From contig OU015566.1 in assembly GCA_907165135.1 (NCBI GenBank), forward strand, positions 4,588,001 through 4,652,000: a DNA stretch of 64,000 nucleotides, in the 5' to 3' direction. This document shows positions 50,465 to 64,000 of the stretch, in pieces. Both the position numbers and the translations under genes were made by a program. The stretch is from Oikopleura dioica (taxonomy: Eukaryota > Animalia > Chordata). The notes under the pieces are model-generated. The model ran no database searches and had not been told where the DNA came from. It saw nothing but the letters and a program-made list of their open reading frames with translations. The number at the start of each line of letters is the position of its first letter. Positions within the stretch are counted from its first letter, which is position 1.

Positions 50465-50598
50465 GCTGAAAAAAGAGGCGACATGATTCAAAAAAATTAG
50501 TTTATTTCATTCATTTTGCAGAGGAAAAGTGGTGCACAGGATAAAAAAAAACATTAATAATGTTACATTATTCTTCTTTGTCTTCGTTGTTGCTCTCT

Positions 50599-51006
50599 TC
50601 AGAAATCGTAGTCGTGTCGAATCTCGCCATTCATCAAGGCCTCTCTGATGAGCTCGTCCCGGGCTTCTGGCCAGTTAAGCGGTCGCTCAATCAGCATGAT
50701 GTCTGGATCGTTGAGGACGATGATCTCCATGTCGTCGTCGCTGGAAGAGATGATGATCACTTCATTGTCATCGCTGATTTCGATAACAGAGGAGTCGCTT
50801 GAGTCGGCGTCGTGATCGTGCTCGGTGTCGTTTTGCTCGGCGTTTTGTGTGTAGTCTTGACAGTCGCAGTCCATGTCATCAGAAGGAGGAGGGGTTGGAT
50901 TGTAGTCTACGGTCTCCAGAGAGACGTCGAGGTCAATGTCGACGAGTGATGGCGATTGAGCCGGGTAGACATACATATCGGAATCGGTTTCCCAGCGATC
51001 AGACAT
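50599..51006 (-). CDS. Acidic protein with tandem SUMO-interacting-motif-like segments
   Basis: Intronless ORF MSDRW.. containing VIEISDD, VIIISSSDDD, EIIVLND and DIMLIE. cag|aATG start context. Confidence 0.7.
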   Translation of the reverse strand: MSDRWETDSDMYVYPAQSPSLVDIDLDVSLETVDYNPTPPPSDDMDCDCQDYTQNAEQNDTEHDHDADSSDSSVIEISDDNEVIIISSSDDDMEIIVLNDPDIMLIERPLNWPEARDELIREALMNGEIRHDYDF

Positions 51007-51094
51007 TCTGGTTTGAAGGTTTTTGTTTTCTTGAAAGTAGAATTTTTTTTTTGACTGAATGACCATTTTTGGGTGTGGTTATATTCAGAAGCTC

Positions 51095-51145
51095 CAGACG
51101 CTTTGGCGCCAATCAGTTGGATCGATCTAAGCTGGCGCCAATGTA
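51095..51145. promoter_or_regulatory. Candidate bidirectional promoter with two TGGCGCCAAT (E2F-like/CCAAT) sites
   Basis: tttggcgccaat at ~51101 and ctggcgccaat at ~51131, between the divergent ORFs starting at 51006(-) and 51347(+). Confidence 0.4.
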
Positions 51146-51346
51146 CAATCGGAAATACTAATCTGATTTTAGTGAAGCGATCAGCGGGGGATTAGACTGC
51201 ATCTGTTCCCAGAATCGGCAGATAGGCCTTAGATTTCCGCCGGATATGTTTGTATAATTGACTTTTCACGGCTTAGCTTCACTCAACCATGGAGAAAATG
51301 GTATATAAGTAGCTCTTAACTCACTAATCTCATCAAATCCAGCAAT

Positions 51347-51622
51347 ATGCCTAAATTCGAAGTTTCTGGCTTTTCTGTCCGAGTTTCCAAAACCTACGGG
51401 TTTTTCGTCACCATCACCGGAACTTGCGCGAATCGAGACGAGCCTATCAAGCTCAAGAAATTCTTCAAGAAAGATGCCTTTGCCGAAGTTCTCCCCGACC
51501 TTGTCGCTGGAGAAATGAACGTGGTCATCATTGGCCGCCGCAACCAGACTGACTTCGAAGCTCGAAACAACATCCAGTACTACGACTTTGTCCTCGAAGA
51601 CATGGACTGGACCGACATGTAA
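51347..51622 (+). CDS. 91-aa beta-rich protein (possible OB-fold ssDNA-binding protein)
   Basis: Clean ORF with strong codon bias, alternating hydrophobic beta-like segments and an acidic C-terminal tip. The fold is a guess. Confidence 0.55.
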   Translation: MPKFEVSGFSVRVSKTYGFFVTITGTCANRDEPIKLKKFFKKDAFAEVLPDLVAGEMNVVIIGRRNQTDFEARNNIQYYDFVLEDMDWTDM

Positions 51623-51719
51623 CTCACAATTCTCTGCGAAACCTCCCTCTCTCTTGTCACGTGGTGTTTTTTCTTGCGCTTTTTTTTTGTGTGCTTTTAT
51701 TTCCAGAAATAAACTTTTC

Positions 51720-60464: not shown

Positions 60465-60820
60465 GTGATGGAGTCAGCTTTTCGAGACCTGATTGAGACT
60501 GCAAACTACTACAACGATCGAGATGACGAAATCGCTGATAAGGACAAACGAATAAGAATCAAAACCCTGATCGACTTGGTTATCCACGAAGAAGACGCCT
60601 TCAAGTTATCGGAGATGATGGGTAAATTATCATGCATCATAGATATAAAATTTCTTTAGAAGCTGAACCAAAAACCAATCCTGCCATTGAAGAAATCTTA
60701 CAAGTCATCGGAAGCTGCCTTGAGAACAAGTTTAACCTAGGTTTGACAGATTATCTGCGCATAAATTATCCTTTTTTTCAAGATGAATACGAAATCATAG
60801 ATGAGATCTACGAAAATTGA
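60465..60820 (+). CDS. ~105-aa helical acidic protein, one intron
   Basis: ..LSEMM|EAEPKTNP.. joined in phase by a GT-AG intron of about 38 nt. Confidence 0.55.
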
Positions 60821-61105
60821 TACTGTTTTTTCAAGTTTATTCAATAAAATTCAGACATAGAGTTCTTGTTCGGTTCTTCTTTTGGTCGATTTTGAGCATG
60901 ACAGAATAAATGTAAGCAGAGAAATATATACAAAGTATCCAACAAGGTAGGCGCAGAAAGTCTTGTGGCTCGCAGACCAGGTAGTTACACTAAAAAATAT
61001 ATTAGTTAATGCAAAGAAAACTAAACAAATACTCTGTGATGTTTGCGGACATCTTTTTTGAAAACATAAAGAATTTACCTCGCTTATATACAGATCGAAA
61101 TTGCC

Positions 61106-62200
61106 TTAGGCCTGGTTACAGAATTCCAGAAATTCGTCGAAGCAGCTGACATTTCCAAGCTCTTGCTCAATAGACCTTTCTTCTTTTATTTTTTCCTCCT
61201 TTTCGAGGGTGGAAAGAAACTGAGTGACATCTGCGTCGCTCAGATAATCTAATCCGCTGTCGCTGAATTTGTCTAGTGTTTTCTGCATCAGCTCGTCGAC
61301 TTGCTCTGTCATCGATTTTTTAGCCGGGAGAATGTCGGTGGATTCAGAATTCTTTCTTTTTCGAGACTAAAATATCTTTAGTTTCATTTGAACTCAGAGA
61401 TAATCTTACTTTAGTTGAAGGTTCGCCATTGATGATTGGCACAGCGTTGATGAGTGATGCTAGAATATGTTTTTAAAGAACATAATGAATCGCTTGTTCT
61501 TACATTTTGGTTGCTTTGGTTGCAGATTTTCAACCGAGTCGATAGTTGAATTCGCTAGGATATTTTTAGAAATGAATGTCTGGGAACGACCTACCATCGA
61601 AATCTAATCGATTGCGAATTTGCACCGTCGACTCATCGCGTTTGATTTCTGGGTTTATCGGGGTCAGAGTTAAATTGGGAAGAGTTTCCCATGATTTCAT
61701 CGGTGTAGATGTGGGCAGCATAAACCCTCTGATGTCCATCTGACGTAGCGAGTCATCATCATCGGATGAGATAATGATTGGAGAATCTGGCGAGTATGAA
61801 ATCAACCTTTCGAGGGGTCGAATCGCGTCGGGCTCTTTTTCCAGAGCTTGAATAAACTCCTCTGAAAAAAAATTTTAAGCCATTATTCTTAAGGCTAGAT
61901 GTACTTGTATATTCGAGAAACTGTTTGAGGTTCTCGGGGGCGACTTGCTCTCCAAGATTTTTGAATTTGCGGCTGTGGCGAGCCATTTCGCGGTGATGGA
62001 AAAAAATCTTTTGTTTAGCGATCGAAAGCTCTGTTTTTGCAAGTTCCATTCTCTATTTTGTAAATAATTTTGAGTGATGTGTTGAGCCTGCTGACCTTTA
62101 TATGGGCTTTGCAGTTTATGCGCGAGTAACTTGAGAAACATCGCTCTGCAAATATTTCCGGTTCTAGTTGGATTAGATTGTATATTCCATCCGGGCATTT
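61106..62200 (-). CDS. Multi-exon orphan protein with SIM-like, RxL-like and NLS-like motifs
   Basis: In-phase GT-AG joins link MELAKTE.., EFIQALEKE..SPIIISSDDDD..RNRLDF, and SRKRK..MTEQV..CNQA*. The 5' end is uncertain. Confidence 0.5.
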
Positions 62201-62500
62201 TTCTCACGGCTCGCTTTCAACTCAAGAATTATCCCTGAAAATTGTAGACCAAAGACACCGCGGGTAATCTTTTACTTCCTACAATGCCTTCGGTCTCCTA
62301 CTGTGACAAATGCGACGCCCTCTTACGGAAGTAGATGCTCATTTATCCTGCAACTGCAACCCAAATAACAAGATTACAAAATGCTTCAATAGCTCTTACT
62401 GCTCTTTACAGGACACTCTTCCTGTCACTTCATCTTTAAGCTTGTTACTTATATAATGACCAATAAATGACATTTTTGAAAGTTTTTTATTACAGTGAGA

Positions 62501-63790
62501 TTACAGAACTTCCTTTTCGACAGTGCCATGCTCATCGATCGTTATTTTAACTGAATGGCACGACCACATGACCAAAGTTTGAGCTTCCGTAGTTGGTTCT
62601 TTGAAATCAAGGACGAGATTCATCCAACCTTGAGTTTCTTCTGTTCCAGAAAACTCGTGAGCAAATATGGACGATTTCTTGAATTGCTCAAGGGATAAGG
62701 TGTTTGGTGAAGTCGACGAGACAAGCTTGTCCATGACATCCATCAGTCGAAAATATGGCCAAATCGGAAGTTGGTTAGTTATTCGCTAAAATAGAATTTT
62801 TAATAAAATTCAAAAAATTCTTTCTACCATTGGATATCCAAGGCAAGACTGTCCATTTAATGTGAGATTGATGTTTTGCAAGTCTTGATGGAATCCAAAT
62901 GCTGTCGTTTCCTTATCAATAGCACCCTGGAAGGATTTCGTATTAGTAAGCCCGAAAAAAAGAACCGCGGGTGTATTCCCTCCTTTGATATTGTGGAGAG
63001 TCAGATTCCCAGTTTTCTCAGGAATGTCTCTAGTTGAAACGGTGATTTCTTGATATTTGTACGAGATAGGCTTTGATTTTATTCGTGTAAAATAGTTTCG
63101 GATCGACGGGCTCGATACATATTCACAAACAGCATAGCAATCCTTTATCTCAAGAGGCTTGCCCTTATGGGTGGCTTGTTCAGGGGTCGAACCGATGTAA
63201 ACGGTAGAAAACTCTGATCGTAGACGGTTGAATTTAAGTTTCATTGTTGTGTTTAGTGGCAGAGGTTTATTATCCAAGCAAAATCCATTACTCGGAAAGA
63301 AAACAAGCTCATATACGTAGTGATCTCCGTCGCGAAAGCATTGCGGTCGACGAATCTGTTTGAGAACCTCTTTATCAGGTTGCGTCAAGTAGTCATAGAC
63401 TTCATGATCATAATAACCCTCAATCTGATAAGCTGATGAGACGTAGTCGCGGTTAAAGTTTCCGAATTTTGTCATGTAATCAGCAAGAAAATATTCGCAG
63501 CTAAATAAGAATTAATTTCGTCAGTCTCTTTCACGACAGCCTTACGTTGTTTTTGAGCTCGAAATGAGTTGGGAATTAATTTCAACTTCCATGACTCCAA
63601 ATTGCTTAGCGGCAAATCCATTACTTGGTATGTAATCTTCATGTAAAGATACAGACATATGAATCGCAATTTTATTTTTTAGGAGAAACAAATTCGGGTC
63701 ACTTTCAAATTCAAAAGTAAGAATTTCCGAAGACTGAAGATCTTTCGGAAAATGTTTCTTTAAAATGCGTTGGTCGTAAGCTTCATCCAT
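62501..63790 (-). CDS. Polinton-type major capsid protein (double jelly-roll, PY/hexon-like), 3 exons, ~400 aa
   Basis: ILTFEFESD..NGFAAKQF..MEVEINSQLIS, PLPLNTTMKLKFNR, P..LFFGL.N.KSFQG, INLTLNGQ and IFAHEF..GWMNLVLDF..ITIDEHG follow the Polinton MCP pattern. Introns at 63501-63545 and 62786-62827. Confidence 0.8.
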
Positions 63791-63824
63791 TTTTCTAAAT
63801 AGAGAAATAAACTTAAAAACGTAT

Positions 63825-64000
63825 TCACCAAATTTTGTTGAGCTCAGAAAAAAGAATTTCGTCATTAACAGAAAGTTTGCGAGAAAATTTAGAAAGTGTT
63901 GCAGAAAAAGAATGAGATTGACGGTACAGAATAAAGAAGCATGAGTACAGCCCGCAGAGAAAAGATTTGGTTGGCTGTATTTTACGAATTTTTCGAATGG
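63825..64000 (-). CDS. C-terminal end of an adenain-like cysteine protease (partial)
   Basis: KIQPTKSFLCGLYSCFFILYR..FS..L..ND matches the Q-x5-CG catalytic-Cys region of Polinton/adenovirus proteases. Stop at 63825-63827. Confidence 0.7.
   Translation of the reverse strand, partial: IRKIRKIQPTKSFLCGLYSCFFILYRQSHSFSATLSKFSRKLSVNDEILFSELNKIW

Follow-up and report, generated by a model that had tools for sequence, protein, structure and literature searches.

We find that the window, by which we mean the whole 64,000-nucleotide stretch of Oikopleura dioica DNA analysed here, holds part of an Oikopleura Polinton/Maverick, an identity proposed in the original prediction and well supported by homology of its polymerase, capsid, and protease sequences. 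We consider it probable, at roughly 80%, that the core frames of this element become open through removal of short GT-AG introns by the host spliceosome, and that these introns are likely old and were inherited within the element lineage. Its minus strand encodes a protein-primed family B polymerase (pPolB) of 1,233 aa, a double-jelly-roll major capsid protein (MCP) of 400 aa, and the end of an adenain-type cysteine protease, recognised from its final 57 aa alone. As had been claimed, the spliced core frames are free of stops and frameshifts throughout pPolB, MCP, and the protease end.

56355-52325, minus strand: pPolB, 9 exons, 1,233 aa, free of internal stops after splicing
55654-55697, 55393-55431, 55078-55119, 54389-54429, minus strand: pPolB introns 1-4, GT-AG
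54125-54163, 53225-53265, 52868-52907, 52657-52699, minus strand: pPolB introns 5-8, GT-AG
63790-62501, minus strand: MCP, 400 aa, introns 63501-63545 and 62786-62827
63825-64000, minus strand: adenain-type maturation protease, C-terminal 57 codons, truncated by the window end

The eight pPolB introns measure 39-44 nt, seven being in phase 1 and one in phase 2. The unspliced frame meets a stop at aa 234, and retaining any one of seven of the eight introns leads to an early stop, the remaining one (55078-55119, 42 nt) being in frame and free of stops. A profile scored with the window's own database model left out recovered seven of the eight at the same coordinates, its alignment having started downstream of the first intron. 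What we take to be the exonuclease and polymerase motifs are present and in order, with the sixth intron cutting the presumed motif B and the seventh sitting just after the presumed motif C. Because neither the window exons nor P0001 (the window's own database model) matched Pfam pPolB, the polymerase was identified through these motifs and its relatives: P0003, P0008, P0009, P0013, and P0025 match PF03175, and the family profile aligned to the pPolB of L022 with a probability of 98.7 (hhalign). Between motifs A and B lies an insert that L022 lacks and that may resemble VSR by its motif, Pfam giving no match on that exon; polymerases carrying a VSR nuclease insert form the pPolB2 class in the available text of PMC10748475. 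The fusion of acidic ORF A to pPolB in P0001 was rejected because the same separate pPolB start recurs in L001.

Keeping either of the two MCP introns stops its frame, and across both genes nine of the ten core introns (8 in pPolB, 2 in MCP) do so if retained. The MCP relative P0048, which matches MCP exon 2 at 43%, has a predicted fold (pLDDT 93.6) that aligns to double-jelly-roll capsids with a Z of 25.6 and an rmsd of 3.0 over 336 residues, matching the capsids of PBCV-1, Sputnik, mavirus, and iridovirus and also a MELD virus protein; single-sequence folding of the MCP exon gave no usable model (pLDDT 32). The protease fragment is 38% identical (E 2e-9) to a Peptidase_C5 protein of the relative L010, which itself matches PF00770 (E 4e-6), and the portion in the window needs no intron. 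A 34-nt candidate intron at 63795-63828 was dropped, being unnecessary for protease and MCP alike.

L010 carries an rve integrase, the protease, and the same capsid gene beside a polymerase of this family. No integrase was found within the window by tblastn, its L010 counterpart lying upstream of the protease, that is, past base 64000 here. Candidate L010 ORFs for the packaging ATPase and penton matched nothing in Pfam and nothing convincingly in the window, and we expect both genes beyond the window end. Neither terminal repeats nor a target-site duplication were detected inside the window, whose boundary precedes the right end of the element, and no left terminus was recognised in it. The nearest named relatives are O. 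dioica gene models; an IMG/VR scan with four queries returned no viral-collection contig of this element, Pfam found no core-gene match among 25 unspliced window ORFs, and PDB sequence searches gave nothing for an exon query and E 0.095 for a profile query.

Outside the core, ten small gene models were assigned to the element, for most of which splice-site scores were the sole basis; a 59-aa model (61067-60851) with two possible donors was left out of the count. They are listed here together with a gene on the left flank.

49435-50464, minus strand: TFIIB-like gene, six 38-42-nt introns, 263 aa open once spliced
50599-51066, minus strand: acidic ORF B, without coding intron, the last gene on the left that could be assigned to the element
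51347-51622, plus strand: 91-aa gene, without coding intron, 43% to the syntenic L001 gene
51720-52265, minus strand: conserved 181-aa gene, directly downstream of pPolB, without coding intron
56567-57356, minus strand: acidic ORF A, 235 aa, two introns (57170-57211, 56590-56629)
57718-58317, minus strand: predicted 144-aa gene, introns 58196-58238, 58060-58099, 57933-57973, 57778-57818
58488-58748, minus strand: 86-aa ORF, no intron needed, no homologue found
58948-59430, minus strand: tandem paralogue 1, 132 aa, two introns (59188-59228, 59004-59046)
59660-60072, minus strand: tandem paralogue 2, 108 aa, two introns (59873-59915, 59695-59737)
60468-60820, plus strand: predicted 104-aa gene, intron 60622-60659, top splice score (22.0)
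61106-62049, minus strand: predicted 257-aa gene, introns 61862-61904, 61555-61594, 61460-61503, 61367-61409, no homologue found

The 181-aa gene has homologues in matching position in L001, L002, L003, L005, and L010, with no Pfam match and no usable Atlas match, and for acidic ORF B the syntenic gene of L001 is a weak homologue (E 9e-8 in pairwise comparison). In the L001 homologue of acidic ORF A, the first of the two intron sites is likewise occupied by a GT-AG intron. The two tandem paralogues have introns at the same two sites, with direct repeats D8, D14, and D20 as evidence for paralogue 1, and the predicted 144-aa gene, modelled from splice-site scores and an open frame alone, would have a hydrophobic segment and a tail rich in Arg. 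The expectation that most of the roughly ten small genes need splicing is partly borne out, by six of the models, the other four being open without coding introns. To the left, where decayed host fragments had been proposed, the adjoining TFIIB-like gene is open and spliced, matching sea-anemone TFIIB at 55% over 258 columns without stop or frameshift; it lies 134 nt beyond the stop of acidic ORF B, and may be a flanking host gene or cargo of the element.

Each of the 25 coding introns in our models is GT-AG and measures 38-45 nt (median 42), with a strong bias towards phase 1 (19/25). In the region 56400-62500 we counted 26 strong donors with a matching acceptor, against a mean of 7.8-8.8 (maximum 18) in 180 shuffles. 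Intron density is 2.2/kb in pPolB and 1.7/kb in MCP, about half that of the host, and pPolB exons have a median length of 317 nt where the host value is 152 (Table 2 of PMC8008620); together with the four accessory genes free of coding introns, this makes "fully converted" to host architecture an overstatement. When 24 of the window introns were set against one another, no family likeness emerged (mean pair score -5.8, against -6.6 after shuffling), and they lack the repeated, mutually similar sequences that characterise introners; the best pair scored 13 against a shuffled maximum of 7, and probably consists of tandem duplicates. Four raw RNA runs under the same species label, of which 4, 4, 59, and 56 in 100 were sampled, yielded at 85% likeness neither a joint nor any read on 52010-59822, and 226 of the 228 reads that aligned fitted in part only. 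This blank is uninformative because the runs may stem from another lineage of a cryptic group, the species label covering a cryptic species group in the available text of PMC11067885. Among DNA joints, none of the 15 listed of 18 removes an intron exactly. That the replication and capsid genes would require host splicing, as originally predicted, is well supported from homology.

The core introns appear to be ancient and clade-wide rather than the product of a recent conversion, because their positions are common to relatives whose synonymous sites are saturated. L001, roughly 69% identical, has seven pPolB introns, each of which agrees with a window intron in position and phase, and relatives roughly 40% identical share three to four positions with the window (four of the five in L002, 3/3 in L005, and 3/3 in L010); the probability of such sharing by chance is 7e-21 for L001, 9e-11 for L002, and 4e-9 for L005/L010, and does not exceed 2e-5 when sites are counted conservatively. 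In MCP, the window has site 83 in common with L002 and L010 and site 303 in common with L001, and in DNA run X4 the indels listed for a diverged sister family lie within intron 63501-63545. Site 822 is present in the window and L002 and absent from L001, L005, and L010, and therefore parallel gain or repeated loss occurs. Every exon is under purifying selection: between the window and L001, pN is 0.12-0.43 and pS 0.64-0.91 across each of the nine exons, while only about half of the bases are identical in six matching introns, and three further pairs show a similar pattern (e.g. L004/L013, dN 0.06, dS 2.5). Among unspliced database relatives, 49 of 53 end their match no more than 8 residues away from a mapped intron, and many terminate in donor read-through letters. 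In a midpoint-rooted FastTree phylogeny, for which long-branch joins were warned of, intron-bearing sets form one clade and the uninterrupted P0044, P0045, L021, and L022 fall outside it. No intron was placed in L021/L022, a weak control given that the caller aligned short parts only; their long ORFs are better evidence of intron absence than the intron caller. The intron calls for L016, most of those for L019/L020, the long ones for L017, and those for L003 near site 1214 were set aside as unreliable.

These shared positions bear on each of the other explanations that we weighed. One is that the window holds a fixed, domesticated host locus, in which a single Polinton integration gained introns in residence and was retained because it served the host. 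Coverage extends to all 30 bins of 45-64 kb in 4/4 DNA runs from three studies, X4 long contigs have similar depth (57-62, a weak hint only) and divergence (3-8%) across the TFIIB flank and the element, and there is no space for a terminal repeat between acidic ORF B and TFIIB. We nevertheless regard this as unlikely: O. dioica has at least eight polymerase gene models of several families on chr1, PAR, XSR, and YSR, some sister-family models at least 90% alike on different chromosomes, the window and L001 have different gene orders despite their matching introns, and the intron-bearing L010 retains its integrase. Fixation of this copy would moreover leave the clade-wide introns unexplained. 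The "recently active" label is not supported for this copy, whose window shows no terminal repeat or target-site duplication and whose versions in other samples are up to 9% diverged.

A recent arrival converted genome-wide to host architecture, for instance by a burst of an intron-generating transposon, would fit the resemblance of the 38-45-nt introns to those of the neighbouring TFIIB gene, and several accessory introns have no homologue by which to date them; yet saturated synonymous divergence among relatives sharing the positions, the absence of family likeness, and the four accessory genes without coding introns largely refute it, and we consider it highly improbable. Less credible still is that the segments are unspliced insertions or frameshifts of a decayed element with chance GT-AG ends. 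No RNA junction was seen, and Genewise calls decay insertions introns in vertebrate Mavericks (available text of PMC8097293), but all ten core segments are GT-AG and 39-45 nt long, no further lesion occurs across 4.9 kb of core coding sequence, and the positions recur in other elements with purifying selection on downstream exons. Under the preferred reading of old, inherited introns, transcription of the element would take place in the nucleus through host RNA polymerase II and its transcripts would be spliced by the major spliceosome, while spreading copies would be made as DNA by its own polymerase. Because copying would involve no RNA step, introns once gained would reach every new copy and rarely be lost. 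An intronless ancestor would have gained introns stepwise, with branches gaining or losing single ones, and the lineage has likely depended on host splicing machinery for a long time.

Adenoviruses are relatives with pPolB, a double-jelly-roll capsid, and adenain that also rely on host splicing, of leaders and long alternative segments; unlike the window element, they are not known to carry many tiny introns in the polymerase coding region. Polinton core genes are described as intronless in the available portions of PMC8097293, bioRxiv 10.1101/2022.07.12.499685, and PMC10748475, whereas here pPolB has eight introns and MCP two. An intronless core is a trait described for Polintons rather than one that defines them. 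With the animal Polintons of these three sources the element shares pPolB, double-jelly-roll MCP, adenain protease, and, in L010, the rve integrase, and it differs by its split pPolB, MCP, and most accessory genes, its gene order, and some ten small genes of no known family. Dinoflagellate polinton-like elements also contain intron-type inserts, but those introners are, in the accessible part of PMC12166617, repeated, transposon-derived, mostly post-integration, and about 25% in coding regions, in contrast to window introns that lack family likeness and keep their positions across the clade. Mirusviruses likewise carry GT-AG spliceosomal introns in virion genes, interpreted as a ratchet tying virus to nucleus; according to the accessible part of PMC12768974 they belong to a different realm and infect protists, with introns of ~80 nt at variable positions and some homing endonucleases, whereas here a small animal Polinton has fixed 40-nt introns in its own polymerase.

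Surveys are designed around intronless core genes. One of them, covering 7,897 genomes, excluded Chordata and asked for a match of 650 aa and an ORF of 900 aa (available text of PMC10748475), and this clade therefore could not have appeared in it. A broader proposal, to which we give slightly less than even odds, is that a large undescribed clade of spliced Polintons infects larvaceans and other marine plankton, is still spreading from genome to genome, and has been missed by surveys demanding long unbroken ORFs, its genes, intronless in the ancestor, having gained introns inside the virus with a strong phase-1 bias. Each intron is likely a gain because the outgroup genes are unbroken. In a host noted for rapid intron turnover, the clade thus provides a tractable series on how introns arise and vanish and, if virus-internal gain is the correct reading, a clean record of how spliceosomal introns are gained and lost, one that can be dated. 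If the conserved pPolB and MCP introns are what they appear to be, they would tie the whole cycle of the element to nuclear transcription and splicing, and the host would gain a splicing-level control point over it.

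The split core genes of this Polinton are well supported at the DNA level as real, and are arranged together with the left edge of the element as follows:

49435-50464 (-): TFIIB gene, next to acidic ORF B on the left (host gene or cargo)
50599-51066 (-): acidic ORF B, the leftmost ORF assignable to the element
56355-52325 (-): protein-primed family B DNA polymerase (pPolB)
63790-62501 (-): major capsid protein (MCP)

Spliced alignment of a family profile against the window placed eight introns in pPolB, and seven of these were recovered at identical coordinates when P0001, the window's own O. 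dioica gene model, was excluded from scoring, in an alignment that begins past the first intron. The spliced pPolB frame encodes 1,233 aa with zero stops, and retention of 7/8 introns introduces a stop; the MCP (400 aa) has two introns in the window. For pPolB and MCP, these results bear out the original reading of frames that are open only once introns are removed. An MCP relative of 43% identity gave a confident fold (pLDDT 93.6, from a 43-row alignment), which matches double-jelly-roll capsids. The longest pPolB exon best matched P0001 (96% identity, the gap being one in-frame intron), followed by further O. dioica models at 45-51%, and a broader polymerase search returned 43 proteins, including six O. 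dioica models; all others are metagenomic.

The window carries the polymerase, capsid, and protease by which a Polinton is recognized, with the protease gene truncated at the window end; the integrase and both element ends were not seen for this copy within the 64-kb window, which cuts through the protease. A single block of the intron-bearing metagenome locus L010 holds pPolB and MCP together with a protease (PF00770), a conserved gene of 181 aa, and an rve integrase, which indicates a clade of integrating elements. An insert separating polymerase motifs A and B (53266-54124) is common to the clade and missing from L022, an outgroup Polinton; from its motif, we take it to resemble a VSR nuclease.

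A metagenome scan yielded 24 loci with related polymerases, 22 of which were subjected to spliced alignment, with L022 added afterwards and L023 left out. Numbered by P0001 residue, the window pPolB introns lie at 366, 440, 531, 747, 822, 1108, 1214, and 1270. L001 has every one of these except 822; L002 has 561, 822, 1108, 1214, and 1270; L005 and L010 each have 1108, 1214, and 1270; and L003, with a single frameshift and a single stop in its frame, has 774, 806, and 856 in addition to 440 and 747. A second intron group (L004, L006-L009, and L011-L013) carries varied combinations of 856, 901, 1112, and 1207, the last of which is also present in L019 and L020. This sharing far exceeds chance expectation, and the alignments of unspliced database relatives break off at mapped intron sites in 49/53. 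Matching introns have diverged in sequence, whereas pN is low and pS saturated in each exon, which indicates that the frames past frame-breaking introns are under selection as protein. MCP intron sites are likewise shared, while certain MCP relatives are uninterrupted (e.g., the database protein P0048, a 397-aa ORF). Two separate introns of L001 (~860-1120 and ~3585-3865) are enlarged to ~260-280 nt, apparently by short tandem repeats of one type. One contig-name prefix is common to 16 of the 24 loci (L002, L004-L013, L015-L018, and L020), and a single data set therefore contains numerous distinct intron-bearing lineages.

We reconstructed a pPolB phylogeny with FastTree (40 rows, 1,104 columns), excluding L014, L015, L017, L018, L023, L024, and most near-duplicate database proteins. 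The closest partner of the window is L001 (69% identity, support 100); together they join the O. dioica models and then L002, L005, L010, and P0009-P0011 in a group of 14 rows (support 99), to whose common ancestor sites 1108, 1214, and 1270 would most simply be assigned. Both intron groups fall within one 33-row clade (support 100), and the uninterrupted P0044, P0045, L021, and L022 are placed outside it. The order of intron gains is provisional, given the midpoint root and flagged long-branch joins.

Strong splice-site pairs, scored with matrices built from 49 introns at other loci, number 26 in the pPolB-MCP interval compared to 7.8-8.8 in shuffles, a roughly threefold excess. The expectation that most of some ten small genes need splicing held for six accessory models, which require 15 introns in total, and failed for four that require none. 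Element introns are GT-AG without exception, with a median of 42 nt, slightly shorter than O. dioica values; earlier reports give a peak at 47 nt (PMC5240408), and a median of 48-51 nt with 11-12% non-canonical ends (PMC8008620). Phase 1 accounts for 19/25 modelled introns (P 1.6e-5 against one third), in models that are partly hand-chosen and include two duplicate genes, and for 7/8 in pPolB considered alone (P 0.003); none of the six TFIIB introns is in phase 1. A small two-intron gene is duplicated in tandem with its downstream non-coding block (58832-60090), both intron sites being kept in each copy. Other repeats are a 78-nt tandem pair (57459-57614) and an 18-nt array within an Arg-rich exon (57803-57892).

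Six DNA data sets from three studies were available, one of which may be the window's own source. Each of the four others compared covered 30/30 bins of 45-64 kb. The X2 run contains contigs with 0 differences from the window plus a diverged version, and long contigs diverge by ~1-9% in X3 and 3-8% in X4; three synonymous changes among four listed pPolB variants are too few for a selection test. Polymerase models 90% identical to one another form clusters on chr1, PAR, and XSR, which suggests that sister families were mobile recently. The window copy itself may be an older insertion with intact frames, possibly fixed.

Synteny with L001 reaches leftward as far as acidic ORF B. The adjacent TFIIB has an open frame of 263 aa with six introns, ~50 aa shorter than its top match, and for this gene the earlier description of decayed host fragments on the left is not borne out. 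At 49435-50506, it sits operon-like behind the final Polinton ORF, with AATAAA at 50501-50506 and a T-rich acceptor immediately before its start at 50464. TFIIB is either a host gene flanking a truncated element end or possible Polinton cargo; in L022, a TBP domain adjoins pPolB. Further left, 44012-48460 contains, besides small acidic genes, a SAP-domain ORF (PF02037) and one that is RS-rich, and may be a further mobile unit; depth is raised at 45.6-47.5 kb in X2 and X4. Inverted repeats of ~740 nt (21261-22001 and 30592-31333; 99-100%), spaced ~8.6 kb apart, probably belong to a distinct, young, cargo-bearing TIR element; two of several ORFs between them (28557-29285 and 29677-30087) had no Pfam match.

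Polinton core genes are termed intronless in PMC8097293 and a nematode Maverick preprint (bioRxiv 10.1101/2022.07.12.499685), in agreement with the premise that they are generally described as unspliced. We found no literature report of conserved spliceosomal introns in these genes and no paper on Oikopleura Polinton gene structure; supplements and Repbase lay outside the search, so a prior mention of spliced Polintons is possible. Available portions of PMC8502044 and bioRxiv 10.64898/2026.07.28.741278 held nothing relevant to spliced core genes. As far as the accessible text goes, PMC12220804 reports group I introns alone, PMC12166617 concerns dinoflagellate introners, PMC12768974 mirusviruses, and the survey in PMC10748475 applied an ORF filter. 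Mavericks are among the O. dioica element types in PMC5240408, and the words Maverick and Polinton are missing from the accessible main text of PMC8008620 and PMC11067885. The main value of the finding is an intron set conserved clade-wide.
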